DNA of 64,000 nt from Cetorhinus maximus (Eukaryota): the NCBI RefSeq assembly GCF_964194155.1, contig NC_135903.1, positions 33,976,001 through 34,040,000 on the forward strand, in the 5' to 3' direction. The stretch's first letter is position 1, and every line of letters starts with the position of its first letter. Below, one piece after another: positions 3,400 through 47,339 of the stretch. A program made the position numbers and the translations under genes. Under the pieces are notes generated by a model, which was not told the DNA's origin, did no database searches, and saw only the letters and a list, made by a program, of their open reading frames with translations.

Positions 3400-4434
3400 G
3401 TCCTTTTCCAACTGCCCATCACCCCTCTCAGTCTGATCCACCCTCTTTACAAACTCTCCTCCCTTTCGGAAATGACAAAACACGTCACTTTCCTTCAGAC
3501 ACTTTCGCTTTGGGATGAAATTGACACCAGGTTAATTTGCAGAGAGAAAGTGACACGGACACTTTCCCGGGAGAGAGACAAGAAAGAAAGGATGAAAGAA
3601 AAGAGAGCGGGATCACTTTCGGACTCAGAATCGGAGCAGATCAAATATTCTTTCAATCCGACTCTGAAAATGGCTCCAGAAAACAACCGAGAAATGAGAA
3701 ACTTCTCCCAGTTAAAGAGCAGATTGTGGGACAGGTCAATCGGAGCGGAGTCTGTCTCCATGAAGCGGTGTCCCTGGGCTGTGAGCCGAGCTGTCTGCAA
3801 TGTCCAACCTGTGAAGTGTGAACAGGACAAGCGCCAGGTGAACACACCGCGGGGACACAGTGGATTTCAAAGGGAATCGCTCTTCATGGGGCCCAATGTC
3901 AGCACTAAAAGCCGCCGCACCGGATCACCGCTGTCGCTCTCTCTATAATCCGGATGATAAAATCCAGCCCCCGATACATGTTCACACTGCCCCCAATTCA
4001 GAGCCTCCCTCTACACCACCTTCGTACCCCAGGTGAGCTGAAGCCACACAACACTGAGCCCGAACCGAGCGCTGCCTGTGATTTTCAACCGGGGATTTTC
4101 CACTCGCTGCTTCCGGAATCTCCAGCTTTTACATTCCTGACCTCAGAAAGGAAACCGGACAAACTATTGATCTCCCGCAGCTCTTCCAAAAATCCTCGAG
4201 CCCGTTTTCACTTTTCGAATGTAATGCCACACATTAAAGCCGACAGCATGGCAGCGCCAGTGAGAGCACCGAGCAGACTCCACACTCACACTCACACTGT
4301 TCGGCAGCACAGGCGCTCGCTCCCGGATCACAAGCAGCTCCGATTCGACTTTCCCAGTTTAAATCCGCCGCGGAATCAAGAAGCCGCCGGTTTCTCATCT
4401 TTCACATCGGTGTTTCACTCTGGGTCGCTTGATC
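3400..4434 (+). promoter_or_regulatory. IFN promoter type A, copy 1 (CpG-rich, IRF/NF-kB motifs)
   Basis: Contains GGGATTTTCC (kB consensus, 4092-4101), GAAAGGAAAC (4146-4155), GTTTTCACTTTTC (reverse strand GAAAAGTGAAAAC, an IRF-E, 4204-4216), a distal GAAA cluster at 3470-3710, TATAAT at 3944 and TTTAAA at 4358. It lies directly upstream of the IFN ATG and occurs six times in the window. Confidence 0.7.
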
Positions 4435-7400
4435 ATGGCTTTGGCGAGTATCTGGAGATTCTGGATGGTGTTGCTCTTCTTGTCCGGGACCCTCAGTCTG
4501 GGATGTGAGAGGCTGCAATTACAGCAAGTTCTCAACACAGAGACTCTCAGCAAACTGAATGCAATGGTGAGTTGAACCTGCAGCCAGAGCAGGAGGTGAA
4601 TCACATTGCGTCCATTTGTTTTGAAAAATTATATCAGGAGAAGTCGTTTTCGTCCTTGCAACGGTTAATTGTCAGCGGACTGCAGTATTTCTGTTTCTCA
4701 TGTGTTTGAAACAGTGTTTGTCTTTTCTCTCAGGGCGGTCGCTTCCCCCGACAATGTATAAGGGAAAGGTTGGACCTGAAAACCAAGCCCATGGATCTAG
4801 TGAGGCTTTCGGAGGGTTTGCAGGTGAGTGAACACTGGGGCTTATTTTCACTTATACTAACAGAATTTTATGTAAAACCAGGTTGAGATCCACAGCCCTC
4901 GCCCAGAACGTACATAGCAGGTCGCCCACTGATGTGAAGATGTCGGTAGAGATAAGAGTCAGGTCCTGCTTAGAGTCAGGGTTGATTACGTGCTGCGCAG
5001 TTTAAGATCCCTGGAGGGATGTCCACATGTCAGATCCACATCCCTGAAAAACTCAGCAGGTTTGGCAGCATCGGCGGAGAAGAAAAGAGTTGACGTTTCG
5101 AGTCCTCATGACCCTTCGGCAGAACTGAGTAAAGTTAGGAGAGGGGTGAAATATAAACTGGTATAAGGTGGGGGGTGGGGGCGGGGGAGAGAAGTTGGTG
5201 CGATGCGGGGGGTGGGGGGAGTGGTTGTAGGGACAAGCAAGCAGTGATAGGAGCAGATAATCAAAAGATGTCACAGACAAAAGGATCAAAGGGGTGTTAA
5301 AGGTGGTGATATTACCTAAGAAAATGTGCTAATTAAGAATGGATGGCAGGACACTCAAGGTACAGCTCTAGTGGGGCTGGGGTGGAAAGACTGACGACAG
5401 GGTATTACAGTTATAGATTTAAAAATAATGGAAATAGGTGGGAAAAGAAAAATCTATATAAATTATTGGACCAAAACAAAAGGGAGGGGGATGAAACGGG
5501 AAGGGGGTGGGGATGGGGGAGGGAGTTTAAGATCTAAAGTTTTGAATTCAATATTCAGCCCGGAAGGCTGTAAAGTGCCTAGTCGGAAGATGAGGTGCTG
5601 TTCCTCCAGTTTGCGTTGGGCTTCACTGGAACAATGCAGCAAGCCAAGGACAGATATGTGGGCAAGAGAGCAGGGTGGAGTGTTAAAATGGCAAGCGACA
5701 GGGAGGTTTGGGTCTTTCTTGCGGACAGACCGCAAGTGTTCTGCAAAGCAGTCACCCAGTTTGCATTTGGTCTCTCCAATGTAGAGGAGACTGCATTGGG
5801 AGCAACGAATGCAGTGGACTAAATTAGGGGAAATGCAATTGAAATGCTGCTTCACTTGGAAGGAATGTTTGGGCCCTTGGACGGTGAGGAAAGAGGAAGT
5901 GAAGGGGCAGGTGTTGCATCTTCTGCGTGGGCATGGGGAAGTGCCATAGGTGGGGGGTGAGGAGTAGGGGGTGATGGAGGAGTGGACCAGGGTGTCCCGG
6001 AGGGAACGATCCCTACGGAATGCCGCCAGGGGGGGTGAAGGGAAGATGTGTTTGGTGGTGGCATCATGCTGGAGTTGGCAGAAATGGCGGAGGATGATCC
6101 TTTGAATGCGGAGGCTGGTGGGGTGATAAGTGAGGACAAGGGGGACCCTATCATGTTTCTGGGAGGGAGGAGAAGGCATGAGGGTGGATGCACGGGAGAT
6201 GGGCCGGACACGGTTGAGGGCCCTGTCAACGACCGTGGGTGGAAAACCTCGGTTAAGGAAGAAGGAGGACATGTCAGAGGAGCTGTTTTTGAAGGTAGCA
6301 TCATCAGAACAGATGTGACGGAGGCAAAGGAACTGAGAGAATGGGATGGAGTCCTTACAGGAAGTGGGGTGTGAGGATCTGTAGTCGAGGTAGCTGTGGG
6401 AGTCAGTAGGCTTGTAATGGATATTGGTGGACAGTCTATCATCAGAAATTGAGACAGAGAGGTCAAGGAAGGGAAGGGAAGTGTCAGAGATGGACCATAT
6501 GAAAATGATGGCCGTTAGCTTAGTTGGTTAGTCGAGAATAACGCCACCAGAGCGGGTTCAATTCCTTTCCCACTGAGGTAGATTTTGAGACCTGCCGCTT
6601 TGCCCTGCACCTGACATTGGGAGAAAATGGCAAACCACCACCGACAAATGAAAAACTGCCCAGAAATCAGTTCAGGATGAAGAATCAACAGATAACAAGC
6701 CAAGGACATGCCTTCTGGCACAGCGCACCTCCCGCTGGCAGGGATACAATCAACTAATTGGCAGTCAATTAAATATTGAGAAGTCCAAAGACATTCTTTT
6801 CAACTACCGCCATTAACTCTGTTCCCTAGTTACTGACTTCAAAGCTCTACCGAACCAATGTCTGATACTGACTCAGAATATTGGCCTTCTATTTAACCCA
6901 CAGCTGAGCTTCCAACACCATCAGCAAGCTAACCTATTTCAACCTTCGTAATATCACCCATCTCTGCACTTGCCTCAGCTCATCTGATCCTGAAACTTTG
7001 ATCCATGTATTTCTTCCCCTAGACTCCATTATTCTAATACTCTTCAGGCTGACCTCCAACCTTGCGCCCTCTATAAACTCGAACTCACTCAATTAACTGC
7101 TGCAATATATCTAAACTCTAATATATCTAAATATCCCAACGAGCACAATGTCCTAATCAGCCATCACCTCAGTATTCTGAGATCTATTCTGAGGCAATGT
7201 AAGATCAAAAGGCAGCTGTAAGCCTCCAACTGGCTCCACAGTGGAAAGAACCTCATTTTGAATTCGTAAGATGAAAATGCTTTGCCTGATGTTTGGTTAA
7301 ATCTGTGCGTTTCTGGTGCCTTAATGGAGATTAGTTTGGGAATCTGTTTAAAATTATGATGGTAGTAATTTGTAGCCATGTGTGCATATTTTAACCTGTG

Positions 7401-8734
7401 TAAATGAATAAAATATTTCAATTAGTTTCATGTAAAACCTCAAGAACTGGTGGTCTGATTCCTGAATTTAGAGTTGTATCTCAAACATAACACTTAAAAT
7501 GATAGGTTATTACAGTTGTTTAAAGTTTTCCTCAGGGACTTTTAAATAACTCAGCTGCACCAACTGCATCGCCCCAGCTTCCAAACCAGCAACATCTCTT
7601 TTTTTATATACTCATGCTGGTTTTGCCCCTTGCATTTTTTGTAACTTCCTCCAGGCCCCAACAACCCTTCCAGATCTCTGTGTTACATCCAATGTTCTCA
7701 TCATGCTCATTCCAGATGTTCATTGCTCCATCACTGTGTAGCTGTGCCTTCATCTGTCTGGCCCTTAAGCTCTGGAATTAACTCCTTCCTAACTCTCTCT
7801 CCTCTGTAATTGCCTCCTAAAAGCCTAACTCTGAGCAAACATTCCACCTCCTTTTGTGGCTGGGTGTAAATTTTCTTTGATAATGCCCCTGTGAACCTTC
7901 TTGAGGTTTTTCACTATGTTAAATGTCCTACATAAATGCAAGTTGTTATTGTTGGTATCATGGGACCAATTGGAACTGTACATAGACTGGTCTAAATGGG
8001 GTGTGAGGTCACCATCAGCAGAGAGTCTCAAAGTGTTTGGCCAGGTGATAGATCTTCAGTGCCAGTTGGACTGTAGAGTTTGCATCAGTACTAGCCTGTA
8101 CCACCTAGTAACTACATTTCAGGGAATATAATAATCAGTTAAATAGAGGCAGCAACTTTATTGATGTGATGTAATTAGTCACTTTCTCCTGAGCAACAGC
8201 AAGGATTAACTGTGAAATTTGCACCAGCCCTGACTGGTTACACAGGAACAGGTCCTCTCTAATGTCCTTGTGAATATTTCTCACAGGCCCAGGACAGGAT
8301 CCAGATTGTCCATCAAACCCTGCGTCACATCAGCAAGATCTACAGCATGAACCTGGGCTCAGTCACGTGGCCCCGAGACAAGGTGGAAAACGTCCGGCTT
8401 CTCCTGGATCGGCAGCTCAGCGAGCTGGAAGAATGTGTCAGGGAACCAGGGTCAGAGCACAAGATGAGGAGAAACTCCGCCATTCAAAAATACTTCAGGA
8501 AACTTCGAAAGTTTCTCAAACAGAAGGTGAGACAATAAATAATTGACAGTGTGATTACTGCCATGTCGTTCATTCAGCTGCATTTAAATCTGTTCATTCT
8601 CTAATGAGGTTTCCTGAATGATTTCTCTTTTTCAGGGATTCAGTGACTGTGCCTGGGAAATAATCCGCACTGAGACCAGGACCCGTTTACAACAGCTCCT
8701 TTTCGTAACGGCACAAATCAACAGAAGAAACTGA
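4435..8734 (+). CDS. IFN: Type I interferon, copy 1 (divergent; 4 exons, 186 aa)
   Basis: Exons 4435-4566, 4734-4823, 8287-8526 and 8636-8734, all GT-AG phase 0. Translation: MALASIWRFWMVLLFLSGTLSLG/CERLQLQQVLNTETLSKLNAM-GGRFPRQCIRERLDLKTKPMDLVRLSEGLQ-AQDRIQIVHQTLRHISKIYSMNLGSVTW...ELEECV...KYFRKLRKFLKQK-GFSDCAWEIIRTETRTRLQQLLFVTAQINRRN*. It has a signal peptide, 4 Cys and the CAWE motif. Confidence 0.95.
5040..6510 (-). mobile_element. Penelope-like retroelement 3' part (RT thumb and GIY-YIG endonuclease) in intron 2 of copy 1
   Basis: ORF 5463-6272 contains VPLVLTYHP, a Cys knuckle CPRRRCNTC and VHCIRCSQCSLLYIGETKCKLGDCFAEHL (GIY-YIG). The flank carries a gaagggtc...cgaaacgtcaac-type terminal motif. 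Confidence 0.88.
6510..6730 (+). mobile_element. tRNA-derived SINE-like fragment
   Basis: A-box-like TAGCTTAGTTGG and B-box-like GGTTCAATTCC at 6516-6565, with no complete cloverleaf. Confidence 0.5.
6830..7950 (+). mobile_element. Degenerate L2/CR1-type LINE 3' fragment, interrupted at about 7230-7570
   Basis: Decayed sequence resembling L2 RT C-terminal motifs (NLRNIT.L...LSSSD.ETLIH.F...RL.YSN.L.A.L), ending in an aaatgcaagttgttattgttg-type tail. Confidence 0.5.
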
Positions 8735-9840
8735 AAAAAAATTCCAGTAGTAGAGACTAAATTAATTTATTTAAATTACCTCCTATTTATAAAAATAATT
8801 ATATCTTATTGTATTTTATTGTATTGCTGAGATGACACTTTGATGCTTGGTGGCCGATGGAGAGCAAAGAATATCTTGATGCCACTTTATATTTGATTAT
8901 TTGTTTCAATTTATTGATAGTTCTCGCTCTGATATTTTTCTGTGTTGAAATGTTAAATGTTTCACGAGGGGAAAAATCTGAGGAAAAATGCTATTTCTGT
9001 CCCTCCCTTTATTGGCTGGCAGTGGCTGCAATAACAGTTTCATTTCACCTTTGCTCTGTTAAGCACCTGATTCCAGTCGTTGGATATCCAGCGTAGATTC
9101 TCTGAACTGGCCCACGTAGCTTGCTCCTAATGCTCCTTATCTTATCTGCATTGAGTTAAACTGAATGCCATGATGCCTTTCTGCAATAGATGTTACGGTT
9201 TTTAAGGTGTAAAATCAAAAATGAAAAGAAGGAACTGAAGATTTTTCAATGACAAGTTTTATACAGATTGAAAAGATAATAAGTTATTTTAGAGTCCTCA
9301 CTTTTTAAAGAAGTATAATATTTTATGCATACAGAATGCAAAGTATCATTAATTATAAAGTTCTGTCAGCTTGGCTCAATGCTGGCACTCTGAGGCAGAA
9401 AGTGGTAGGTTCAAACCCCACTCCAAAGGTTTAATTTCCATTGAGTTTTATGAAGCTCCTTATCCAACTGCTGGACTTCCAGTGACAATTCTGCACTGGA
9501 AATGGTCTGGCCATTCCACAACTCTGGTTTCCAGGTTACTCTCAGGCTCAAGGGTGGGGTTGCAGCCCAATGACCACTGACCTTATTCCTGTTCCACAGT
9601 AACCTTTACATTTCTGCTCTCCAAGACGTCAACACTGCAACTAATTCCACGTCATTTTAATGTATTGATATTTATCATTGTGATGCCTTTGTGTAATGAA
9701 TTGCTACAGTTTTATACAATGTATGAAGTGAGTTCAAAAAGAAATGTTAATTTATTGATATTTAAGATTTGCGAAATTAGTGTTTTTTTTATAAAACTGA
9801 AAACTTTTTATGTTGAAGGAAAGCATGTTTGTAATAGCTC

Positions 9841-10420
9841 AAATCAGCAGAAGAAACTGAAAAAGACATGTTTACTACAGGCTGGGAGCAATGAATATTT
9901 ATTTTTAAAAACTTTCAATTTAAAGCTATTTCCATATATATTTGTAACAAATTTTATATTTTATTGTACTGATCACAGAACAATCAGTGACATGATGGTA
10001 TTATTTATTTTATTTATTGATTGATATTTATTGCTGTGACATTTTCACCTGATGTAATCCTAAACCTTCAGTGGCTGGGGTGTCTGCTCTGGAATTTACT
10101 GTCAGGCTTTCAAGATATGGGTTTGCAGACCTATAAACCCTGGGCTGCACTGACCTTTCCATTTCTCCCTTCCTAAGTTAAGTGGCCAACTTTCCAATCT
10201 ATTTCAGCCACTGTAATTTATTGATCTTTATTGTTGTGATGTCTTCATATAATGAAATATTACAGTGTTATACAATGTATAACGTGAGTTTTTCACAATA
10301 ACTTATTTAATGATATTTATTAAGATTTGGGGAACACACAATGTTTTTTGTAACTGGAAAATTGTATATACAATGAGAGCCTTTTCCTGTAAATAAATTA
10401 TTTTCAATATTACGCATTAA
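9841..10420 (+). pseudogene. Remnant of an additional IFN gene: last codons of exon 4 plus the array-type AU-rich 3' UTR
   Basis: AAATCAGCAGAAGAAACTGA (..ISRRN*) at 9841-9860, followed by the same 3' UTR found after copies 2-8. The rest of the gene is absent. Confidence 0.8.
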
Positions 10421-12729: not shown

Positions 12730-13760
12730 TTTCCCAACTGCCCCTCACCCCTCTCAGTCTGATCCACCCTCTTTACAAACCCTCCTCCCTTTCGGAAATG
12801 ACAAAACACGTCACTTTCCTTCAGGCACTTTCGCTTTGGGCTGAAATGGACACCAGGTTAATTTCCAGAGAGAAAGTGACACGGACACTTTCCCGGGAGA
12901 GGGACAAGAAAGAAAGGATGAAAGAAAAGAGAGCGGGATCACTTTCGGACTCAGAATCGGAGCAGATCAAATATTCTTTCAATCCGACTCTGAAAATGGC
13001 TCCAGAAAACAACCGAGAAATGAGAAACTTCTCCCAGTTAAAGAGCAGATTGTGGGACAGGTCAATCGGAGCGGAGTCTGTCTCCATGAAGCGGTGTCCC
13101 TGGGCTGTGAGCCGAGCTCTCTGCAATGTCCAACCTGTGAAGTGTGAACAGGACAAGCGCCAGGTGAACACACCGCGGGGACACAGTGGATTTCAAAGGG
13201 AATCGCTCTTCATGGGGCCCAATGTCAGCACTAAAAGCCGCCGCACCGGATCACCGCTGTCGCTCTCTCTATAATCCGGATGATAAAATCCAGCCCCCGA
13301 TACATGTTCACACTGCCCCCAATTCAGAGCCTCCCTCTACACCACCTTCGTGCCCCAGGTGAGCTGAAGCCACACAACACTGAGCTGGAACCGAGCGCTG
13401 CCTGTGATTTTCAACCGGGGATTTTCCACTCGCTGCTTCCGGAATCTCCAGCTTTTACATTCCTGACCTCAGAAAGGAAACCGGACAAACTATTGATCTC
13501 CCGCAGCTCTTCCAAAAATCCTCGAGCCCGTTTTCACTTTTCGAATGTAATGCCACACATTAAAGCCGACAGCATGGCAGCGCCAGTGAGAGCACCGAGC
13601 AGACTCCACACTCACACTCACACCGTTCGGCAGCACAGGCGCTCGCTCCCGGATCACAAGCGGCTCCGATTCGACTTTCCCAGTTTAAATCCGCCGCGGA
13701 ATCACGAAGCAGTCGGTTTCTCATCTTTCACATCAGTGTTTCACTCTGGGTCGCTTGATC
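12730..13760 (+). promoter_or_regulatory. IFN promoter type A, copy 2
   Basis: Near-identical to 3400-4434, with the same kB and IRF motifs. Confidence 0.7.
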
Positions 13761-16700
13761 ATGGCTTTGGCGAGTATCTGGAGATTCTGGATGGTGTTGC
13801 TCTTCTTGTCCGGGACCCTCAGTCTGGGATGTGACAGGCTGCAGTTACAGCAAGTTCTCAACACAGAGACTCTCAGCAAACTGAATGCAATGGTGAGTTG
13901 AACCCAAAACACCGAGTCGGTAATTATGTTGAGGGGAGAGAGGGAATCAGCCTCCAGGAGAGATTAAATCTGGATTTGGGTGAAGGAACAAATGGGATCT
14001 GAGAGGAAATTGGAAAGCAGACATTGAGGAGGAGGGCGCTCAATGACGGAAGAAGCGGAATGTGAACCTGAAGGGGGAGAGGGGGCAAATCAGAGACAGC
14101 CCATCAGTAACAACCATTCAGAATAATAGAGCCACTTTAAGGTCTCAAGGTGCCTCACGGGAATGTTATACAGCAACATTTGTTGTGGTGGGCACAGCAA
14201 GATTTCAAACTTTGCAGATGATACAAATTTTGGAAATGTTGTCAACTGTGATGCGGATGGTGCTGAACTTAAAAACGACATTGGCATGTTTGTGGATTGG
14301 GCAGACAAGTGGCAGATGAAGTTCAATGTAGAGAAATGTGAGGTGATACGTTTTGGGAGGCAAGATAAGGCGAGACCTTATAAAATAAAGGGAGTGACTC
14401 TACAGGATGTGCAGGAACAGAGGGACCTCGGTGTATATGCGGATTGGTCATTGAAGATGGCAGGGCATATTGAGAGCAGTTAATAAAGAATATACTAGCA
14501 TAGGCTTTATTAATTGTGGCGTTGAGTAGAAGAGAAAAGAGGTCATGTCGAACTTGTATAAGACACCAGTTAGGCATCATCTGGAGTACTGTTCTGGGCA
14601 CCATACTTGAGGAAGGATGTAAGGGTATTGTTGAGAGTACAGAGGAGGTTAACAAGAATCATTCCCAGGATAACGAACTGTAGCTACGCGGGAGGATTGG
14701 AGAGGTTGTCACTGTTTTCCTTGGAGAAAAGAATGTGGAGATTAGGCTTAATTGAGGAACTCAAGGTACCCTGTGGGGTATGGACAGCGTTAATAATAAG
14801 AAACCGTCTCCACGAAAACGAACATCAAGAAATATAGGGCACAGGTTGAAAATAGTTGGCAAAGGGAGTAAATGTGATATGAGGAGCAATTTTTGAACCC
14901 AGGGTGTGATTGGAGCAAACTTCACGCAGTGCTTTCAATATTTGAAAATGAGGGTGAGAATTTTAAAATGAAGGTATTTCTTATCCAGGAGACTGACGCT
15001 GTGTTTTGTTTGATCTCCCTGAGGAGATGCATGTCGAACAGAAATAGAAAGGGACCTAAAATAGATTCTTGGGGACACAGAGGCTAAACGTTGGGGCTGG
15101 GTGGGTGATGGTGGGGAAGAGATGCCATTCTGGGCTTTTACAGTCTGCATTTAGACAGTGGGAGCCAGGCAGTGTATCCCCAACCAGCAGGCCCATGGTG
15201 GAGAAAGTTGAATTCTGATGTTCATGTCGACTATGTCACAGGGCTAGAAGGAGGAGAATGTTTTACATATGTCACGGGCATGTTGAATGTAATTTATGAA
15301 TTTGCCTATCACCTTATGGAGATCTTGTGATGCAATGGGTCGGACCTGCTTTCAGGCAGAGAACTCAAGAACAAGTACAGCCTTATAATGAATCAATGTT
15401 ACCAAATGCCCCTTCATTGCCCCCTTAATGCGAATCCGTTCAATTTGGAGGAAGCATGATAATGTTCCCAAAACATTGTTAAAACTGTTGATCCAAATTA
15501 TTAGAACTTTGAGCTGGAACCGAGCGCGGGTTGTGATTTTCTCTCGGGCATCTTCCAGTCACTGGTTCAGGAATCTCCAGATTTCAGATTCCTTACCTCA
15601 GACAGGGAGCAGACAAACTCTTCCTCTCCTGAAGTCCTTCCAAAACTCCCGCAACCAGATTTCACTTATAGAGTGTAATAGCAACATCGCCAGTCCCCCC
15701 TCTTCACAGCGACAGCTCCTCCCAGCACAATTCTCACACAAACATACACAAACAGGACTGGACATTCAGGCGGTCGCTCCGGCTTCACAAGCTGCAGCAT
15801 TTCCACTCCTCGTGTTTCATTCGCTTCAAAGTAACAGACTTTCGGAGTTGATCCCAGATCCGGTCAGTGTCTGATCCTCAACTCGGGGTGTTTCACTCTG
15901 GGTCGCTTGATCATGGCTTTGGCGAGTATCTGGAGAATTTGGATGGTGTTGCTCTTCTTGTCCGGGACCCTCAGTCATATTTCTTGATGTTCGCTTTCGT
16001 GGAAACGGTTTCTTATTATTTACGCTGTCCATACCCCACAGGCTATCTTGAGTTCCTCAATTAAGCCTAATCTCCACATTCTTTTCTCCAAGGAAAACAG
16101 TGACAACCTCTCCAATCCTCCCGCGTAGTTACAGTTCACCTCCTCTGTACCTCTCAGGGCGGACCTTTTCCCCGACACTGTATAAGACAGAGACTCTCAC
16201 TGAAAACCAAACCCTTGAACCTGGTGAAACTCTCGAAGGAATTAGAGGTGAGTAAACACTCGGTTCATTTGATTCACACAGGGCTTATATACAAAGTAAG
16301 ATCAACAACCGGATCGGAAACTTCCACATCAGGAATTTGGAATAGAGTGATTTGTACCCATTGTGAATGTAGGAGCAGTCTCACTTATTGTATTTCACTC
16401 ACTATCTCACTCATGAACTATATCACTCTCTCTAACCGCACTCACTACTCCCTTATCTCCAACTCTCTCCCTCCCAGATATTATGTCCCTCCCTCTAACT
16501 ACCTGCTCTGCGAGCCATCCGACTGGATCTCCCATCTCCTTTTCCTGCAGGGTCTCTAGATTATTCCGTGCAGACCACTGCCTGATGGGCCTGTTGTCAA
16601 AGGTGTTTCTCTGCCTGAACATTTCTACACGGGATAGGTGGTGAGTCAGGTTCCAAAGGCTTCGAGTGTTCCCGACAACAAGGCCAGTCCCATCCTTTGC

Positions 16701-19299
16701 AACACCGGGGACAGGTTGAAAGTCAGCACTTGCAGTTTGCGTTCCAAGGGTCCACGCACAGCTTGATGCAGCAAGACACAAATGTAGTCATCAGGATGAG
16801 GGCGATGTTGACTGCGTTTGGTCCTCTGATCATTGACTATGTGAAAACTTCTCAACTTTTCTCAACCTAACACCCTTTAATTTTCTCACCGCCTCTAACC
16901 ACCTCACTTCCTCTAAACATCTTATTCCCTGTAACAATTTGCCTCCCTCGAAACATCTCACTCCTCAGCTGCACTGAAAGACTTTGGGGCATGAACCACG
17001 CAGGCAGGTTAGGCCATAGGAACATAGAATGATCCTGTGCTGAAGGAGACCGATTGGGCAGAATGGCCTGTTTCTGTGCCACGTTTCCGATCAACTACCT
17101 GGTGGAAAAATACGTTAGTAGGTACGCACTAACCAGCATTCATATATTCAAGAAAAATCACCTTTCCCAAACTTGATTGAGTTATGTGATAATGCAGCAG
17201 AGAGTGTTCATGAGGTTAGTGCGCTTAATCTTCTGATGATGTCATCATACCTCTGCAGCACTTTGAATGAACGATTCAAATTATTCCCGATCTCATCCCC
17301 CATTACAATGCAAAAATCTTCTCTGACTATTTATCCAATTCTCTCTTGAAAGTTATTATTGAATCTGCTTTTGCTGTTTTGAAAATCAATCCATACGCAC
17401 AGTTTTAAAAGACTAATCATCAGAAGATCCAGCGCACAATCCTCATCAACGCTCTGCTACATTAACACATAACTCAATCAAGCTTGGTAAAGATAATTTG
17501 ATGGTAAAGATGTCTCCCCAGAGATCTCTGTGTCTGAAGGTTTCCCACCACCCAAAATGGTCTAACTGGCCTGTATTTGTTGGGTTTATCCCTCTTCCAT
17601 TTTTGAATGGGATGTAAGTATTTGAAATCTTCTGGTCCGCTGCCATCATGTCCCTCATATCTAAAGAGGACTGGAGGAATGCGGCCAGAAGTGTCATTTC
17701 AACCCTTGCTTTCCTCAGCAATCTCAGCTGTATTCCGACCAGATCAGGTGACTTTCCTAACCTGAGTGCTGCCAATATTTTACGTACCTCCTCTTTATCT
17801 ATTTTAATCCTACCCAATTTCTCTACTCGCTCCCCCTTCACTGTGACTTTTGAAGCATCTGCTTGTGAAGTGAAGACAAATTCCAAGAACTGGTTTAGGT
17901 CCTCCGCCATGTCCTTTGTGTCCCACAAGAAGATTTATTTTTTGCTCACTAATCAACACAAACAAACATTTATTTACATGCTTATTAAAAGTTATTAGCT
18001 TCCCTCTTATGTGACCTGCTCATCAATTCTCATGCATTCTGTTTATTCCTTATTTCTTTTGATAACTTTTCTCCATATTGGCTGCATTCAGCTTGGTTCC
18101 TCACTCAGCTAAGAGCCTAATGTTTCACATAAGGCTTCGTTTTCTGTTTTGTTTTAATGTCTACATCTTTTGGCGATGAGGTCATTGACCTTGCCATGCC
18201 CTTCCTTTCTGCTTCATTGAAAGGAGTCCAGTCTGCAACCATAACATCTCCACTTAAAAAGAGCCTCAATTGCTACTTTCCTCCTGAGGAAGCACTATTT
18301 AAGAGGAGTCAGTGGCTTAGTGGTAGATTCACAGGGTTAATAATTCATGGCCTAGGCTAATGCTCTGGGCACCTGAGTTCATGCCCCATCACACAGCTGG
18401 TGGAATTTTAATTCAATCAATAAACGTGGAATATAACACTAGTGTCAGTAATACTGACCATGCAACTATCATGGATCTTTGTAAAACCCTTCTGATTCAC
18501 TAATGCCTTTTAAGAAAGGAAATGTGACTTCTGCATCTGGACTGGATGACATGTCACTCTCAGCACATGGTCGAATCTTCACTGTCCTTTCTAATATTCA
18601 GTTCAAGGGACATTAGGGATGGACATGTAATTCTGGCTTTGCCAGTGATGCACACATCCCATGAATGTCTAAAGGAAAATAGAATCCTTGATTCAAATAC
18701 ACCTGGGCCAGATCCCCTTTAAATGCACTAAAATTAATCCTCCCCCTTTTGCCCATTTTCAGCTGTATTTGTATTTTGTTCTTTAACATAGTCTGTTCTA
18801 AAATTAAAAGTGAACATGTCCTTTCTAATGTCATTCTCTACATTATACACAGATACAGGATAGGATCCAGATTGTCCATCAAACCCTGTGTCACATCAGA
18901 AAGATCTACAGCATGAACCTGGGTTCAGCCGCATGGGCCCAGGACAAGGTGGAAAACCTTCGGCTTCTCCTGGATCGGCAGCTCGGTGAGCTGGAAGAAT
19001 GTGTCAGGAAAGCAGGATCAGAGCACAAGATGAGGAGAAACTCCGCCATTCACAATTACTTTAGGAAACTGGAAAAGTTTCTCAAACAGGAGGTAGGTCA
19101 ATTGATAAATGACAATGTGATTGCTGGCATGTAGTTCATTTCACCACATTTAAATCTGCTCATTCTCTAATCGGTTTCCCTGAATAATTTTCTTTTTCAG
19201 AAATTCAGTGACTGTGCCTGGGAAATAATGCGCAATGAGACCAGAGCCCGTTTACAACAGCTCCTTTTCATCATAGCACAAATCATCAGAAGAAACTGA
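13761..19299 (+). CDS. IFN: Type I interferon, copy 2 (intact only if upstream exon 1a is spliced to exon 2)
   Basis: Exon 1a 13761-13892 (GTGAG donor), exon 2 16158-16247, exon 3 18853-19092 and exon 4 19201-19299 give an open 186-aa frame ending KFSDCAWEIMRNETRARLQQLLFIIAQIIRRN*. There is an extra Cys in exon 3, and the proximal exon 1b is disrupted. Confidence 0.75.
14195..14900 (+). mobile_element. CR1 LINE 3' fragment between exon 1a and promoter B (paralogs at about 45610-46315 and 55105-56020)
   Basis: ORF 14163-14483 reads ISNFADDT...WADKWQMKFNVEKCEVIRFGR...QRDLGVY. Confidence 0.88.
15509..15912 (+). promoter_or_regulatory. IFN promoter type B, copy 2 (diverged paralog of the proximal half of promoter A)
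   Basis: Aligns by eye to promoter A from tgagctggaaccgagcgc onward. The kB site is altered (gggcatcttcc), GAAAGGAAAC is lost, and it leads into an exon 1 ATG. Confidence 0.55.
15913..16137 (+). pseudogene. Disrupted IFN exon 1b of copy 2
   Basis: Reads MALASIWRIWMVLLFLSGTLS then HIS*. The rest of the exon and intron 1 are replaced by an inverted copy of 14675-14835. Confidence 0.88.
17416..18060 (-). mobile_element. CR1 ORF2 fragment in IFN intron 2 (paralogs at about 24970-25600, 48900-49550 and 59640-60200)
   Basis: ORF 17446-17928 reads MAEDLNQFLEFVFT...LRLGKSPDLVGIQLRLLRK...FQSSLD-like. Confidence 0.75.
18310..18680 (+). mobile_element. tRNA-derived SINE in IFN intron 2 (paralogs at about 25857-26228, 29640-30040, 36313-36685, 40080-40445, 49800-50172, 60440-60812)
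   Basis: Head GGTGGCTTAGTGG...GAGTTCA (pol III A/B boxes) and tail gctggctttgccagtgatgcccacatcccatgaatgaataaa followed by an A-rich end. Confidence 0.75.
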
Positions 19300-22359: not shown

Positions 22360-23408
22360 TTCCCAACTGCCCCTCACCCCTCTCAGTCTGATCCACCCTC
22401 TTTACAAACCCTCCTCCCTTTCGGAAATGACAAAACACGTCACTTTCCTTCAGGCACTTTCGCTTTTGGCTGAAATGGACACCAGGTTAATTTCCAGAGA
22501 GAAAGTGACACAGACACTTTCCCGGGAGAGAGACAAGAAAGAAAGGATGAAAGAAAAGAGAGCGGGATCACTTTCGGACTCAGAATCGGAGCAGATCAAA
22601 TATTCTTTCAATCCGACTCTGAAAATGGCTCCAGAAAACAACCGAGAAATGAGAAACTTCTCCCAGTTAAAGAGCAGATTGTGGGACAGGTCAATCGGAG
22701 CGGAGTCTGTCCCCATGAAGCGGTGTCCCTGGGCTGTGAGCCGAGCTGTCTGCAATGTCCAACCTGTGAAGTGTGAACAGGACAAGCGCCAGGTGAACAC
22801 ACCGCGGGGACACAGTGGATTTCAAAGGGAATCGCTCTTCATGGTGCCCAATGTCAGCACTAAAAGCCGCCGCACCGGATCACCGCTGTCGCTCTCTCTA
22901 TAATCCGGATGATAAAATCCAGCCCCCGATACATGTTCACACTGCCCCCAATTCAGAGCCTCCCTCTACACCACCTTCGTGCCCCAGGTGAGCTGAAGCC
23001 ACACAACACTGAGCTGGAACCGAGCGCTGCCTGTGATTTTCAACCGGGGATTTTCCACTCGCTGCTTCCGGAATCTCCAGCTTTTACATTCCTGACCTCA
23101 GAAAGGAAACCGGACAAACTATTGATCTCCCGCAGCTCTTCCAAAAATCCTCGAGCCCGTTTTCACTTTTCGAATGTAATGCCACACATTAAAGCCGACA
23201 GCATGGCAGCGCCAGTGAGAGCACCGAACATACTCCACACTCACACTCACACTGTTCGGCAGCACAGGCGCTCGCTCCCGGATCACAAGCGGCTCCGATT
23301 CGACTTTCCCAGTTTAAATCCGCTCGCAAGAACCATTTTCGCCGCGGAAACACGAAGCCGCCGGTTTCTCATCTTTCACATCGGTATTTCACTCTGGGTC
23401 GTTTGATC
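22360..23408 (+). promoter_or_regulatory. IFN promoter type A, copy 3
   Basis: Near-identical to copy 1, and carries the 19-nt longer 5' allele. Confidence 0.7.
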
Positions 23409-26400
23409 ATGGCTTTGGCGAGTATCTGGAGATTCTGGATGGTGTTGCTCTTCTTGTCCGGGACCCTCAGTCTCGGATGTGACAGGCTGCAGCTACAGCA
23501 AGTTCTCAACACAGAGACTCTCAGCAAACTGAATGCAATGGTGAGTTGAACCTGCAGCCAGAGCAGGAGGTGAATCACATTGTGTCCGCTTGCTGTGAAA
23601 TGTCACATCAGGGGAAATGTTTTGCAATTTGTCATTTTGTGCAATGAATAGCCTGTGATTCTCCAGTATTTGAGTTTTTGGGGCTGATTGTAACAGTGAT
23701 TGTTTTCCCCTCTCAGGGCGGACCCTTTCCCCGACACTGTATAAGACAGAGACTCTCACTGAAAACCAAACCCTTGAACATGGTGAAACTCTCGAAGGAA
23801 TTAGAGGTGAGTGAACACTCGGTTCATTTGATTCACACAGGGCTTTTATACAAAGTAAGATTAGCAACCGAATCGGAAACTTCCACATCAGGAATTTGGA
23901 ATAGAGTGATTTGTACCCATTGTGAATGTAGGAGCAGTCTTACTTATTGAATTTCACTCACTATCTCACCCATGAACTATATCACTCTCTCTAACTGCAT
24001 TCACTACCGACTTATCTCCAACTATATCCCTCCCTGATATTATGTCCCTCCCTCTAACCACCTGCTCTGGGAGCCATCCGACTGGATCGCCCATCTCCTT
24101 TTCCTGCAGGGCCTTTAGATTATTCTGTGCAGACCACTGCCTGCTGGGCATGTTGTCAAAGATGTTTCTCTGCCTAAGCATTTCTACACGGGATAGGTGG
24201 TGAGGCAATTACAAAGGCTTCGAGTGTTCACGACAGCAAGGCCACTCCCATCCTTTGCAACACTGGGGACAGGTTGAAACTCAGCACTTGCAGTTTGCGC
24301 TCCAAGGGTCCACGCACAGCTTGATGCAGCCAGACACAAATGTAGTCATCAGGATGAGGGCGATGCTGAGAGCATTTTGTCCTCTGATCATTGACTACGT
24401 GAAAACGTCTCAACTTCTCTCAACCTAACACCATTTAATTTTCTCCCTGCCTCTAACCACCTCACTTCCTCTAATCATCTTATTCCCTGTAACAATTTGC
24501 CTCCCTCGAAACATCTCACTCCTCAGCTGCACTGAATGACTTTGGGGCATGAACCACGCAGGCAGGTTAGGCCATAGGATCATAGAATGATCCTGTGTTG
24601 AAAGAGACCGATTGGGCAGAATAGTCTGTTTCCTTGCCACGTTTCCGATCAAGTACCTGGTGGAAAAATACGTTAGTAGGTACGCACTAACCAGCATTCA
24701 TATATTCAAGAAAAATCACCTTTCCCAAACTTGATTGAGTTATGTTATAATGTAGCAGAGAGTGTTCATGAGGTTAGTGCGCTTAATCTTCTGATGATGT
24801 CATCATACCTCTGCAGCACTTTGAATGAACGATTCAAATTATTCCCGATCTCATCCCCCATTACAATGCAAAAATCTTCTCTGACTATTTATCCAATTCT
24901 CTCTAGAAAGTTATTATTGAATCTGCTTTTGCTGTTTTGTAAATCAATCCATACGCACACTTTTAAAAGATTAATCATCAGAAGATCCAGCGCACAATCC
25001 TCATCAACGCTCTGCTACATTATCACATAACTCAATCAAGCTTGGTAAAGATAATTTGATGGTAAAGATGTCTCCCCAGAGATCACTGTGTCTGAAGTTT
25101 TCCCACCACCCAAAATAGTCTAACTGGCCTGTATTTGTTGGGTTTATCCCTCTTCCATTTTTGAATGGGATGTAAGTATTTGAAATCTGCTGGTCCGCTG
25201 CCATCATGTCCTTCATATCTAAAGAGGACTGGAGGAATGCGGCCAGAAGTGTCATTTCAACCCATGCTTTCCTCAGCAATCTCAGCTGTATTCCGTCCAG
25301 ATCAGGTGACTTTCCTAACCTGAGTGCTGCCAATATTTTACGTACCTCCTCTATCTAGTTTTATCCTACCCAATTCCTCTACTCGCTCCCCCTGCACTGT
25401 GACTTTTGAAGCATCTGCTTGTGAAGTGAAGACAAATTCCAAGAATTGGTTTAGATCCTCCGCCATGTCCTTTGTGTCCCACAAGAAGATTTATTTTTTG
25501 CTCACTAATCAACATTTATTTACATGCTTATTAAAGGTTTTTAGCTTCCCTCTTACGTGACCTGCTCATCAATTCTCATGCATTCTGTTTATTCCTTATT
25601 TCTTTTGATAACTTTTCTCCATATTGGCTGCATTCAGTTTGGTTCCTCACTCAGCTAAGAGCCTAATGTTTCACATAAGGCTTCGTTTTCTGTTTTGTTT
25701 TAATCTCTACATCTTTTGGCGATGAGGTCATTGACCTTTCCATGCCCTTCCTTTCTGCTTCATTGAAAGGAGTCCAGTCTGCAACCATAACATCTCCACT
25801 TAAAAAGAGCCTCAATTGCTACTTTCCTCCTGAGGAAGCACTATTTAAGAGGAGTCGGTGGCTTAGTGGTAGATTCACAGGGTTAATAATTCATGGCCTA
25901 GGCTAATGCTCTGGGTACCTGAGTTCATGCCCCATCACACAGCTGGTGGAATTTTAATTCAATCAATGAACGTGGAATATAACACTAGTGTCAGTAATAC
26001 TGACCATGCAACTATCATGGATCTTTGTAAAACCCTTCTGATTCACTAATGCCTTTTAAGAAAGCAAACGTGTCTTCTGCACCTGGACTGGATGACATGT
26101 CACTCTCAGCACATGGTCGAATCTTCACTGTCCTTTCAAATATTCAGTTCAAGGGATATTAGGGAAGGACATCTAATGCTGGCTTTGCCAGTGATGCCCA
26201 CATCCCATGAATGAATAAAGGAAAAAAGAATCCTTGATTCAAATACACCTGGGCCAGATCCCCTTTAAACAAACTAAAATTAATCCTCCCCCTTTTGCCC
26301 ATTTTTAGCTCTATTTGTATTTTGTTCTTTAACATAGTCTGTTCTAAAACTAAAGGTGTACATGTCCTCTCTAATGTCATTCTCTTCATTATACACAGAC

Positions 26401-30208: not shown

Positions 30209-30655
30209 ACACAGGACAGGATCCAGATTGTCCATCAAACCCTGCGTCACATCAGCAAGATCTACAGCATGAACCTGGGTTCAGCCACATGGGCCCAGGA
30301 CAAGGTGGAAAAGTTCCAGCTTCTCCTGGACCGGCAGCTCGGTGAGCTGGAAGAATGTGTCAGGAAAGCAGGATCAGAGCACAAGATGAGGAGAAACTCC
30401 GCCATTCACAATTAATTTAGGAAACTGGAAAAGTTTCTCAAACAGGAGGTAGGTCAATTGATAAATGACAATGTGAATGCTGGCATGTAGTTCATTTCAC
30501 CACATTGAAAACTGCTCATTCTCTAATCGGTTTCCCTGAATAATTTTCTTTTTCAGAAATTCAGTGACTGTGCCTGGGAAATAATCCGCAATGAGACCAG
30601 AGCCCGTTTACAACAACTCCTTTTCATCATAGCACAAATCAGCAGAAGAAACTGA
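30209..30655 (+). pseudogene. Headless IFN pseudogene, copy 4 (exons 3-4 only, premature stop)
   Basis: Exon 3 30209-30448 has TAC>TAA at 30413-30415, and exon 4 is 30557-30655. Promoter and exons 1-2 are deleted at a junction near 29473-29478. Confidence 0.92.
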
Positions 30656-33719: not shown

Positions 33720-34751
33720 CTTTCCCAACTGCCCCTCACCCCTCTCAGTCTGATCCACCCTCTTTACAAACTCTCCTCCCTTTCGGAAATGACAAAACAC
33801 GTCACTTTCCTTCAGGCACTTTCGCTTTTGGCTGAAATGGACACCAGGTTAATTTCCAGAGAGAAAGTGACACGGACACTTTCCTGGGAGAGAGACAAGA
33901 AAGAAAGGATGAAAGAAAAGAGAGCGGGATCACTTTCGGACTCAGAATCGGAGCAGATCAAATATTCTTTCAATCCGACTCTGAAAATGGCTCCAGAAAA
34001 CAACCGAGAAATGAGAAACTTCTCCCAGTTAAAGAGCAGATTGTGGGACAGGTCAATCGGAGCGGAGTCTGTCTCCATGAAGCGGTGTCCCTGGGCTGTG
34101 AGCCGAGCTCTCTGCAATGTCCAACCTGTGAAGTGTGAACAGGACAAGCGCCAGGTGAACACACCGCGGGGACACAGTGGATTTCAAAGGGAATCGCTCT
34201 TCATGGGGCCCAATGTCAGCACTAAAAGCCGCCGCACCGGATCACCGCTGTCGCTCTCTCTATAATCCGGATGATAAAATCCAGCCCCCGATACATGTTC
34301 ACACTGCCCCCAATTCAGAGCCTCCCTCTACACCACCTTCGTGCCCCAGGTGAGCTGAAGCCACACAACACTGAGCTGGAACCGAGCGCTGCCTGTGATT
34401 TTCAACCGGGGATTTTCCACTCGCTGCTTCCGGAATCTCCAGCTTTTACATTCCTGACCTCAGAAAGGAAACCGGACAAACTATTGATCTCCCGCAGCTC
34501 TTCCAAAAATCCTCGAGCCCGTTTTCACTTTTCGAATGTAATGCCACACATTAAAGCCGACAGCATGGCAGCGCCAGTGAGAGCACCGAGCAGACTCCAC
34601 ACTCACACTCACACCGTTCGGCAGCACAGGCGCTCGCTCCCGGATCACAAGCGGCTCAGATTCCACTTTCCCAGTTTAAATCCGCCGCGGAATCAAGAAG
34701 CCGTCGGTTTCTCATCTTTCACATCGGTGTCTCACTCTGGGTCGCTTGATC
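33720..34751 (+). promoter_or_regulatory. IFN promoter type A, copy 5
   Basis: Near-identical to copy 1. Confidence 0.7.
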
Positions 34752-37302
34752 ATGGCTTTGGCGAGTATCTGGAGATTTTGGATGGTGTTGCTCTTCTTGT
34801 CCGGGACCCTCAGTCTGGGATGTGACAGGCTGCAGCTACAGCAAGTTCTCAACACAGAGACTCTCAGCAAACTGAATGCAATGGTGAGTTGAACCTGCAG
34901 CCAGAGCAGGAGGTGAATCACATTGTGTCCGCTTGCTGTGAAATGTCACATCAGGGGAAATGTTTTGCGATTTGTCATTTTGTGCAATGAATAGCCTGTG
35001 ATTCTCCAGTATTTGAGTTTTTGGGGCTGATTGTAACAGTGATTGTTTTCCCCTCTCAGGGCGGACCCTTTCCCCGACACTGTATAAGACAGAGACTCTC
35101 ACTGAAAACCAAACCCTTGAACCTGGTGAAACTCTCGAAGGAATTAGAGGTGAGTGAACACTCGGTTCATTTGATTCACACAGGGCTTTTATACAAAGTA
35201 AGATCAACAACCGGATCGGAAACTTCCACATCAGGAATTTGGAACAGAGTGATTTGTACCCATTGTGAATGTAAGAGCAGTCTTACTTATTGTATTTCAC
35301 TCACTATCTCACTCATGAACTATATCACTCTCTCTAACCGCACTCACTACCCCCTTATCTCCAACTATATCCCTCCCTGATATTATGTCCCTTCCTCTAA
35401 CTACCTGCTCTGCGAGCCATCCGACTGGATCTCCCATCTCCTTTTCCTGCAGGGCCTATAGATTATTCTGGGCAGACCACTGCCTGATGGGCCTGTTGTC
35501 AAAGATGTTTCTCTGCCTAAGCATTTCTATACGGGAAAGGTGGTGAGGCAATTCCAAAGGCTTCGAGTGTTCACGACAGCAAGGCCACTCCCATCCTTTG
35601 CAACAACGGGGACTGGTTGAAACTCAGCACTTGCAGTTTGCGTTCCAAGGGTCCACGCACAGCTTGATGCAGCAAGACACCAATGTAGTTATCAGGATGA
35701 GGGCGATGTTGAGAGCATTTTGTCCTCTGATCATTGACTACGTGAAAACTTCTCAACATTTCTCAACCTAACACCATTTAATTTTCTCCCTGCCTCTAAC
35801 CACCTCACTTCCTCTAATCATCTTATTCCCTGTAACAATTTGCCTCGCTCGAAACATCTCACTCCTGAGCTGCACTGAATGACTTTGGGGCATGAATCAC
35901 GCAGGCAGGATAGGCCAAAGGATCATAGAATGAAGGTTTATTTTATGCTCATGAATGATCAAAAACAAAAATTTAATTACATGCTTATTAAAGGTTTTTA
36001 GCTTCCCTCTTACGTGACCTACTCATCAATTCTCATGCATTCTGTTCACTCCTCATTTCTCTTGATAACTTTTCTCCATATTGGCTGCATTCAGCTTGGT
36101 TCCTCACTCTGCTAAGAGCCTAATGTTTCACATAAGGCTTCGTTTTCTGTTTTGTTTTAATCTCTACATCTTTTGGCGAGGACGTCATTGACCTTTCCAT
36201 GCCCTTCCTTTCTGCTTCATTGAAAGGAGTCCAGTCTGCAACCATAACATCTCCACTTAAAAAGAGCCTCAATTGCTACTTTCCTCCTGAGGAAGCACTA
36301 TTTAAGAGGAGATGGTGGCTTAGTGGTAGATTCACAGGTTTAATAATTCATGGCCTAGGCTAATGCTCTGGGTACCTGAGTTCATGCCCCATCACACAGC
36401 TGGTGGAATTTTAATTCAATCAATAAACGTGGAATATAACACTAGTGTCAGTATTACTGACCATGCAACTGTCATGGATCTTTGTAAAACCCTTCTGATT
36501 CACTAATGCCTTTTAAGAAAGAAAACGTGACTTCTGCACCTGGACTGGATGACATGTCACTCTCAGCACATGGTCGAATCTTCACTGTCCTTTCAAATAT
36601 TCAGTTCAAGGGACATTAGGGATGGACATGTAATGCTGGCTTTGCCAGTGATGCCCACATCCCATGAATGAATAAAGGAAAAAAGAATCCTTGATTCAAA
36701 TACACCTGGGCCAGATCCCTTTTAATTGAAACTAAAATTAATCCTCCCCCTTTGCCCATTTTTATCTCCATTTATAATTTGTTCTTTAACATAGTCAGTT
36801 CTAAAATTAAAGGTGAACATGTCCTCTCTAATGTCATTCTCTACATTATACACAGACACAGGACAGGATCCAGATTGTCCATCAAACCCTGCATCACGTC
36901 AGCAAGATCTACAGCATGAACCTGGGTTCAGCCACATGGGCCCAGGACAAGGTGGAAAACCTTCGGCTTCTCCTGGATCGGCAGCTCGGTGAGCTGGAAG
37001 AATGTGTCAGGAAAGCAGGATCAGAGCACAAGATGAGGAGAAACTCTGCCATTCACAATTACTTTAGGAAACTGGAAAAGTTTCTCAAACAGGAGGTAGG
37101 TCAATTGATAAATGACAATGTGAATGGTGGCATGTAGTTCATTTCACCCCATTTAAATCTGCTCATTCTCTAATCGGTTTCCCTGAATAATTTTCTTTTT
37201 CAGAAATTCAGTGACTGTGCCTGGGAAATAATTCGCAATGAGACCAGAGCCCGTTTACAACAGCTCCTTTTCATCATAGGACAAATCAGCAGAAGAAACT
37301 GA
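34752..37302 (+). CDS. IFN: Type I interferon, copy 5 (4 exons, 186 aa, shortened intron 2)
   Basis: Exons 34752-34883, 35060-35149, 36856-37095 and 37204-37302, with an open frame. About 0.9 kb of intron 2 is deleted near 35930. Confidence 0.95.
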
Positions 37303-40616: not shown

Positions 40617-41063
40617 ACACAGGACAGGATCCAGATTGTCCATCAAACCCTGCGTCACATCAGTAAGATCTACAGCATGAACCTGGGTTCAGCCACATGG
40701 GCCCAGGACAAGCTGGAAAACCTCTGGCTTCTCCTGGATTGGCAGCTCGGTGAGCTGGAAGAATGTGTCAGGAAAGCAGGATCAGAGCACAAGATGAGGA
40801 GAAACTCCGCCATTCACAATTACTTTAGGAAACTGGAAAAGTTTCTCAAACAGGAGGTAGGTCAATTGATAAATGACAATGTGATTGCTGGCATTTAGTT
40901 CATTTCACCACATTTAAATCTGCTCATTCTCTAATCGGTTACCCTGAATAACTTTCTTTGTCAGAAATTCAGTGACTGTGCCTGGGAAATAATCCGCACC
41001 GAGACCAGAGCCCGTTTACAACAGCTCCTTTTCATCATAGGACAAATCAGCAGAAGAAAGTGA
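40617..41063 (+). pseudogene. Headless IFN cassette, copy 6 (exons 3-4 only, frame open)
   Basis: Exon 3 40617-40856 has two CGG>TGG Arg>Trp changes, and exon 4 is 40965-41063. The deletion junction at about 39913-39918 is the same as in copy 4. Confidence 0.88.
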
Positions 41064-45174: not shown

Positions 45175-45306
45175 ATGGCTTTGGCGAGTATCTGGAGATT
45201 TTGGATGGTGTTGCTCTTCTTGTCCGGGACCCTCAGTCTGGGATGTGAGAGGCTGCAATTACAGCAAGTTCTCAACACAGAGACTCTCAGCAAACTGAAT
45301 GCAATG
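45175..45306 (+). CDS. IFN: Upstream alternative IFN exon 1a of copy 7
   Basis: Intact 44 codons (MALASIW...LNAM) with a GTGAGT donor, followed by CR1 sequence rather than intron 1/exon 2. Confidence 0.7.
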
Positions 45307-46932: not shown

Positions 46933-47339
46933 TGAGCTGGAACCGAGCGCGTGTTGTGATTTTCTCTCGGGCATCTTCCAGTCACTGGTTCAGGAATCTC
47001 CAGATTTCAGATTCCTTACCTCAGACAGGGAGCAGACAAACTCGTCCGCTCCTGAAGTCCTTCCAAAACTCCCGCAAGCAGATTTCACTTTTCGGGTGTA
47101 ATAGCAACATCGCCAGTCCCCCCTCTTCACAGCGACGGCAACTCCCAGCACAATTCTCACACAAACATACACACACACACAGGACTGGACATTCAGGCGG
47201 TCGCTCCGGCTTCACAAGCGGCAGCATTTCCACGCCTGGTGTTTCATTCGCTTCAAAGGAAGTGTCTTTCGGAGTTGATCCCGGATCCAGTCAGTGTCTG
47301 ATCCTCAGCTCGGGGTGTTTCACTCTGGGTCTCTTGATC
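46933..47339 (+). promoter_or_regulatory. IFN promoter type B, copy 7
   Basis: Paralog of 15509-15912 that retains the IRF-E-like TTTCACTTTTC at about 47083. Confidence 0.55.

Follow-up and report, generated by a model that had tools for sequence, protein, structure and literature searches.

How does a gene fare when half of one of its two first exons and nearly all of the following intron have been replaced by an inverted piece of a LINE, and would the long RNA stem that this piece could form with a LINE fragment further upstream help or mask the splice site beside it? G2, a gene of a tandem interferon array in Cetorhinus maximus, raises both questions. They are considered here in a window of 64,000 nucleotides, the whole stretch of DNA analysed (contig NC_135903.1, positions 33,976,001 to 34,040,000 of the forward strand), to which all positions below refer.

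The interferon array

Self-comparison resolves the window into a tandem array whose units, 4-10 kb long and mostly 85-98% alike, encode type I interferons. Exon 3 matches the Interferon alpha/beta domain (PF00143) with an E-value of 7.8e-12 and 46.1 bits, above the cut-off of 26.8, and interferons account for 15 of its 19 matches in the PDB, the best of which is named Interferon. The genes are built from exons of 132, 90, 240 and 99 nt with three introns, all in phase 0 and bounded by GT and AG; four exons and three introns are also the layout of cartilaginous-fish type I interferons in the accessible part of PMC5332411. Like those interferons, as excerpts of PMC5332411 and PMC6640115 describe them, the units have four conserved cysteines and occur as tandem copies with relics, type I interferons being held to evolve by birth-and-death (PMC6640115, same excerpt). 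They differ from the genes in these excerpts in that the promoter and exon 1 are duplicated in three copies; we found no published description of such a duplication in interferon genes, in a literature of which the subscription papers were mostly out of reach. Eight units can be told apart:

G1: exon 1 at 4435; divergent intron 1 and exon 2
G2: first exons at 13761 and 15913; two first exons, 1a and 1b
G3: exon 1 at 23409; single first exon
G5: exon 1 at 34752; single first exon
G7: first exons at 45175 and 47340; two first exons, 1a and 1b
G8: first exons at 54667 and 57313; two first exons, 1a and 1b
G4 and G6: exons 3-4 alone, without exons 1-2; G4 with a stop

In G2, G7 and G8 the roughly 2 kb between exons 1a and 1b contain a decayed LINE fragment and a second promoter.

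The array also holds fragments and mosaics. The two orphan exon 3-4 units (30209-30655, with an in-frame stop at 30415, and 40617-41063) have no exon 1 or 2 close by and could in principle be spliced onto exon 2 of the upstream gene. A 27-nt remnant of the end of exon 4 at 9834-9860, followed by its 3′ flank, indicates that one more unit, since deleted, lay between G1 and G2. G1 itself (4435-8734) is a mosaic. It is nearly identical to the other genes in exon 1 and over the first 42 nt of intron 1, about 28-30% different in the remainder of intron 1 and in exon 2, and about 10% different in exon 3; neither AATAAA nor ATTAAA occurs within 700 nt of its stop codon. Intron 2 of G8 carries a MITE-like element (58508-59072) with 195-nt inverted arms (90% alike) around 175 nt, which is shortened to arms of about 86 nt in G2 (17048-17499), G3 (24606-25057) and G7 (48539-48990) and absent from G5; it amounts to a second intronic stem in its carriers.

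Anatomy and origin of the inverted insert

Along G2, the features that matter here are the following:

13341 to 13760, + strand: promoter A of G2; NF-kB-like site, IRF-like site and TATA-like motif intact
13761 to 13892, + strand: exon 1a; 44 codons, signal peptide, intact, GT donor
14199 to 14940, + strand (sense): degenerate LINE fragment (reverse-transcriptase end, approximate limits); RVT_1 at E 9e-4, below the curated cut-off
14632 to 14637, + strand: 6-nt microhomology, with an offset of 1 nt, to the acceptor end that G2 keeps
14637 to 14649, + strand: donor segment 1, 13 nt, part of the 5′ stem arm
14650 to 14674, + strand: 25-nt segment missing from the insert (template skip or later deletion)
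14675 to 14835, + strand: donor segment 2, 161 nt, 5′ stem arm
15493 to 15912, + strand: promoter B of G2, in the 1141-nt loop of the stem; without a perfect NF-kB match
15913 to 15976, + strand: remnant of exon 1b, 64 of 132 nt; stop after 24 codons
15977 to 16137, - strand: main part of the inverted insert, 161 nt, 3′ stem arm; blunt left junction
16138 to 16150, - strand: short part of the inverted insert, 13 nt; on the + strand, candidate branch A at 16138 and new pyrimidine tract
16151 to 16157, + strand: last 7 nt of native intron 1, including the acceptor AG
16158 to 16247, + strand: exon 2; 30 codons, phase 0, intact
18853 to 19092, + strand: exon 3; 80 codons, Interferon domain, open, private amino-acid changes
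19201 to 19299, + strand: exon 4 to the stop codon; open

The NF-kB-like and IRF-like sites are matches to general consensus motifs. The LINE fragment, putatively of the CR1 clade, sits within the 2265-nt intron between exon 1a and exon 2.

Relative to G7, 237 bp are missing from G2, made up of 68 nt from exon 1b and 169 nt from the 176-nt intron 1; 174 bp stand in their place, and the donor LINE fragment lies 1.1-1.5 kb upstream. An earlier note on this DNA had taken 15977-16137 for the reverse complement of 14675-14835, and self-comparison bears this out: the two agree ungapped at 155 of 161 positions, with a longest exact run of 82 nt, as against 151 of 161 for the paralogous segment in G7 (about 46.1 kb) and 132 of 161 for that in G8 (about 55.6 kb). 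Its assignment of 16138-16150 to the reverse complement of 14637-14649 is likewise correct, the match being exact and the only one that this 13-mer has in the window. The stem arms lie 1141 nt apart and differ at 6 of 161 positions, which makes the insertion an old one. At the right junction CTCTCA (16151-16156) is the reverse complement of 14632-14637, so that the proposed join through ctctc microhomology extends to 6 nt but is offset by one extra C. The left junction (between 15976 and 15977) is blunt, and the internal 25-nt gap is without microhomology to the present-day donor.

Origin by a deletion with an inverted templated insertion is, in our judgement, highly probable. During repair or replication, an ancestor of G2 would have lost exon 1b in its 3′ half and almost the whole of intron 1. 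The end on the side of exon 2 would have annealed by the 6-nt microhomology, with a slip of 1 nt, to a G2-type exon-1a module, on the opposite strand of its dead LINE fragment. Some 199 nt would then have been copied inverted, with 25 nt skipped at that time or lost afterwards, before the copied end rejoined bluntly within exon 1b. Of the two-step FoSTeS/MMBIR-type event that had been invoked, the deletion with inverted templated insertion stands; microhomology, however, is confined to the right junction, and a single 199-nt copy followed by a 25-nt deletion fits as well as two steps.

The scar fits a known class, the MMBIR-like insertions (MMB-TI). In the part of PMC8421209 consulted, these are inverted copies of nearby templates with 2-12 bp of microhomology at 80% of junctions, present as germline variants at about a hundred per person in two human genomes. 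The G2 insertion resembles those described there in that an inverted nearby copy replaces native DNA, with microhomology of 2-12 bp at one junction and possibly more than one template step, as a germline variant. It departs from them in that its template is 1.1-1.5 kb away, whereas the search tool of that paper, as far as the same part describes it, looks within 100 bp; moreover, one of three junctions only has microhomology, and the age of the event hides the number of steps. We infer a repair pathway of this kind, to which end-joining with templated synthesis may be an alternative.

The identity of the donor can be narrowed by shared variants and by read-derived contigs. Contigs from 4 runs (of 24), here called X1, X5, X6 and X10, were compared over 15450-16550; for X1 the comparison concerns the best 32 of 2303 pieces, with 62% of X1 covered, and contigs drop rare paths. 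Against G7 and G8, the insert and the copy in cis have four substitutions and one 2-nt indel in common, with one further common base in the 13-mer, and by these variants the donor is of the G2 module lineage. At 15994 and 16021, however, the insert agrees with both paralogs and the cis copy differs, and the cis copy's own changes are probably missing from the insert at 16004 and 16046 too. The claim that the insert carries the private variants of the cis copy is accordingly right for the variants of the lineage and wrong for the bases found in the cis copy alone. A 'locally templated' insertion, with the copy in cis as donor, is plausible.

The earlier note had also asked whether a distant LINE copy might be closer. 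Better matches do exist: X1 record 3 agrees with the insert at 151 of 152 positions, where the cis copy matches 147, and X5 record 18 agrees with it at 157 of 159 (on 15979-16137); both contigs look like low-copy relatives from the same module and not like distant LINE copies. X1 record 3 has a further 133 letters that do not fit exon 1b. High-copy genomic LINE matches fit only a core of about 39 nt (16079-16117) and are unlike the insert on both sides, which excludes a fresh retrotransposition; de novo LINE retrotransposition was rejected also on the ground that the insert is an internal piece with the variants of the decayed module. Donor-like contigs of two other organisms are without the 2 nt of the shared indel, so that the insertion is later than that change. 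X5 record 18 (175 nt, from another organism) keeps the base of the insert at 16043 and continues for 16 letters beyond 16137; it may represent a donor-type copy or else the insert prior to the 25-nt loss.

It is a real possibility, if short of an even one, that the template was another G2-type module, in the sister chromatid, the allele or a tandem neighbour, that the event had one switch out and one back, and that the 25-nt gap is a later small deletion. The differences from the insert (1 of 152 in X1 record 3 and 2 of 159 in X5 record 18, against 5 of 152 in the cis copy) speak for such a template, as do the heavy reshuffling of the array and the internal gap without microhomology to the present donor. 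The excess of changes in the cis copy (about 4 against 1-2) is nevertheless not significant (p=0.38-0.69), so the closer contigs could be alleles or recent paralogs that keep the ancestral state, and the letters of X1 record 3 outside the matching stretch were themselves identified by inference. The choice concerns the origin alone and is compatible with either functional outcome discussed below.

Repair templated by RNA appears improbable. Here the reverse transcriptase of a LINE would have extended the left break end on the gene's own promoter-A pre-mRNA, the sense template yielding an inverted copy, with 25 nt skipped and the right end annealed by the 6-nt microhomology. The geometry is suitable, since the donor would be transcribed in sense and the copy starts bluntly and ends in microhomology; but no feature of the insertion needs RNA, interferon genes should rarely be transcribed in the germ line, and DNA-templated events of this form are common in the excerpt of PMC8421209 at hand.

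The insertion structure in G2 is real. X1 record 4 (97 nt, 16099-16195, 0 differences, 0 gaps) bridges the internal and the right junctions, and the question of read support raised by the earlier note can be answered positively for these two, the left junction having no bridging contig among the 32 of 2303 pieces listed for X1. As X1 may be the assembly's own sample, this places the junctions in reads and is not independent support. Among the pieces listed for X5, X6 and X10 no contig crosses any junction, which is no proof of absence, just as the failure to find the insert among the listed pieces of three other organisms gives no indication of it. A fold-back artefact of assembly or sequencing, for which the repeat-rich array and the unbridged left junction might be cited, is extremely unlikely given six differences between arms 1141 nt apart and a 97-nt contig that spans two junctions without a difference.

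Reading frames, acceptor and stem of G2

Promoter A of G2 differs from the other five A copies by 1.4-2.7%. Promoter B is 31% different from promoter A, and the IRF-like site that G7 and G8 retain in theirs is broken in G2. Exon 1b has been killed, as had been claimed: the frame of a promoter-B transcript stops after 24 codons and the GT donor is lost. A crude consensus count found no cryptic GT donor scoring at least 6/9 in the exon 1b remnant or the insert, and one GC-type donor site, at 15922, that scored at least 6/9. A leaderless interferon from promoter B was considered and rejected, as the sole in-frame ATG (15987) meets stops before exon 2. On the promoter-A route the frame is open through all four exons, with no stop or frameshift in exons 1a, 2, 3 or 4, and an intact reading frame is left to G2 only by way of exon 1a, the dependence that the earlier note had foreseen. 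Of native intron, only 12 nt follow exon 1a; AATAAA occurs twice in the new intron between exon 1a and exon 2 (14384 and 14482), and the AATAAA at the 3′ end of G2 is intact. Promoter-B transcripts would hence be non-coding, and promoter-A transcripts would keep an open frame and a normal-looking acceptor. Exon 3 of G2 has a private Arg-to-Cys change at 18889, which gives a fifth cysteine in the mature protein.

Two promoters in one fish interferon gene have a parallel in teleost IFNa/IFNphi1, where, in the portion of PMC5127012 available, they give rise to secreted and intracellular forms. G2 is like that gene in having two potential start regions. Unlike it, as that portion presents it, both first exons here encode the same signal peptide, and the broken promoter-B transcript of G2 yields no leaderless interferon.

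With 14 pyrimidines in 17 positions the patched acceptor of exon 2 resembles all five native ones, and it has a branch-like motif whose A is at 16138. An equally good tract without AG would be supplied by 132 of 697 antisense endpoints in the LINE, as against 7 of 697 sense endpoints, and a good tract together with a branch motif by 79 of 697 antisense endpoints. That the acceptor was rebuilt is thus true of the sequence, and it is also what chance would lead one to expect; given the 132 of 697, no selection is needed. The acceptor looks normal because antisense LINE sequence is pyrimidine-rich and because the microhomology itself selects such a stretch.

Known cases of splice-site masking by long-range RNA stems include loop-out by inverted Alu elements. 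The long stem that the earlier note described would indeed loop out promoter B, which lies in the 1141-nt loop. The predicted duplex has -318.7 kcal/mol; folded by themselves, the arms reach -43.9 and -27.6. When the transcript is folded truncated at 16020, 16060 and 16157, the arm bases paired with the donor are 42 of 44, 80 of 84 and 175 of 180; in the first two folds most of the arm bases that have emerged pair with the donor before the acceptor exists. The 5′ arm, transcribed 1.1 kb earlier, would zip onto the 3′ arm as the latter emerges, and the zipped stem would bury the branch point, pyrimidine tract and acceptor of exon 2. Pairing probabilities over 16120-16156 are 0.87-1.0, with the exception of 16150-16151 (0.5), and that of the G of the AG is 0.51; the predicted duplex covers the branch point, the pyrimidine tract and most of the acceptor. 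In a control fold of G7, however, the acceptor is also paired (with an average of 0.74 for its last 40 nt and of 0.62 overall). Pairing probability was rejected on this ground as the sole argument for masking, and the argument rests on the length and energy of the helix.

Stems that contain an acceptor or a branch point suppress that site in tests reported in excerpts of PMC2724269 and PMC2275289, and stems of more than 50 perfect pairs acted in vivo according to Solnick and Lee as cited in the latter excerpt; the longest perfect run in the G2 stem is 82. Formation of long-range stems in vivo is debated and may be poor (PMC2724269, in the part consulted). The G2 stem is like Drosophila Atrophin (PMC2724269) and the case of branch-point sequestration in PMC2275289, as these excerpts present them, in that an inverted repeat in the pre-mRNA pairs with elements of the acceptor; it differs from both in its far longer helix (about 175 bp) and in its birth from one mutation. 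On the folding models, masking of the acceptor by the stem appears likelier than help for splicing, which is disfavoured by the location of the branch point and pyrimidine tract within the stem, with the 5′ splice site about 740 nt outside it. We infer that the stem probably forms in vivo and that G2 expression is probably reduced or lost.

The exons of G2 offer a further, indirect view of its fate. Private changes number 7 in exons 3-4 of G2 and 16 in the 1090 sites that flank them, the corresponding counts for G3, G5 and G7 together being 5 and 60 (p=0.012, one-sided Fisher); this is a sign of relaxed constraint on G2, from a post hoc test on small counts whose pattern gene conversion or positive selection could mimic. 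The same test shows no difference between G2 and the orphans G4 and G6 (p=0.23); it is weak, as no significant difference emerges even between the orphans and the intact copies (p=0.085). The ratio of synonymous to non-synonymous changes in G2, 2:5, is uninformative (p=0.46). On the whole, G2 is probably a weak or silent paralog, decaying in birth-and-death turnover.

Somewhat unlikely, though the foremost competitor of such decay, is a working G2 in which exon 1a is spliced to exon 2 through the patched acceptor and the stem is incidental, being unwound or out-competed. The open frame and canonical splice sites of all four exons, the intact promoter A and a pyrimidine content like that of the five native acceptors are all in keeping with a working gene, and the pattern in G8 described below hints that exon 1a can serve in this interferon family; on the other side stand some 175 paired bases over the acceptor, the AATAAA motifs at 14384 and 14482 in the new intron and the surplus of private exon changes. 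Very unlikely is a live G2 whose output is gated by RNA structure, with mRNA made only when the duplex is edited or unwound (for example by interferon-inducible ADAR), or with unspliced duplex RNA feeding innate sensors; if true, one mutation would have created a feedback switch that acts on an antiviral cytokine, with promoter A replacing B in the array. Retention of the stem as an aid to exon 1a-exon 2 splicing, with promoter B and the remnant of exon 1b in the loop, the helpful alternative that the earlier note had allowed, can be given hardly any credence: the effective intron would shorten from 2265 to about 750 nt and bridging stems are known (PMC7404189, in excerpt), but the acceptor lies inside the helix and not beside it, and none of the six arm differences is a two-sided paired change that can be polarised as compensatory.

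Promoters A and B across the array

A weakened or silent G2, the outcome that we favour, can be set beside the distribution of the two promoters:

4015-4566, 13341-13904, 22989-23540, 34332-34883, 44755-45318 and 54247-54810: promoter A with exon 1, six copies
15493-15912, 46920-47339 and 56893-57312: promoter B, three copies

The six A copies, including that of the divergent G1, are 1.4-2.7% apart and the three B copies, which are drifting, 6-12%, while A and B differ from each other by 31-35%, about the distance of intron 1 and exon 2 of G1 from those of the other genes (27-30%). Upstream of the shared tract, G1 and the exon 1a modules have flanks that are 79% alike. Both promoters occur in G7 and G8; in G2 the B exon is destroyed, and A alone occurs in G3 and G5. 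Judged from these distances, promoter A and exon 1a probably derive from a G1-type gene, were left upstream of a B-type gene and then spread, an apparent takeover of promoters between interferon lineages; a pop-out between exons 1a and 1b would account for the form of G3 and G5, and the event in G2 would be a third way in which the B route was removed. Such a history is in keeping with the birth-and-death mode of type I interferons (PMC6640115).

Exon 1b of G8 (57313-57444) has three private non-synonymous changes and no private synonymous one, and exons 2-4 of G8 look constrained (6 synonymous to 6 non-synonymous, p=0.027), a pattern that hints at expression of G8 from exon 1a. In promoter A, just upstream of exon 1 (the region of 13684-13700 and its paralogs), G3, G7 and G8 have a 19-nt segment that G1, G2 and G5 lack; it marks conversion tracts, and its distribution cuts across gene structure.

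G2 is a natural example of a repair scar that disables one first exon in a fast-turning immune array. It also calls for caution in annotation, being intact to a gene predictor and yet a gene that may go unspliced. Its stem sets up a natural test of whether a 3′ splice site can be masked in vivo by a long inverted repeat lying 1.1 kb upstream of it, for which the near-identical, stem-free paralogs G7 and G8 are ready controls. The series of promoters A and B across G7, G8, G2, G3 and G5 may outweigh the insertion itself in interest.
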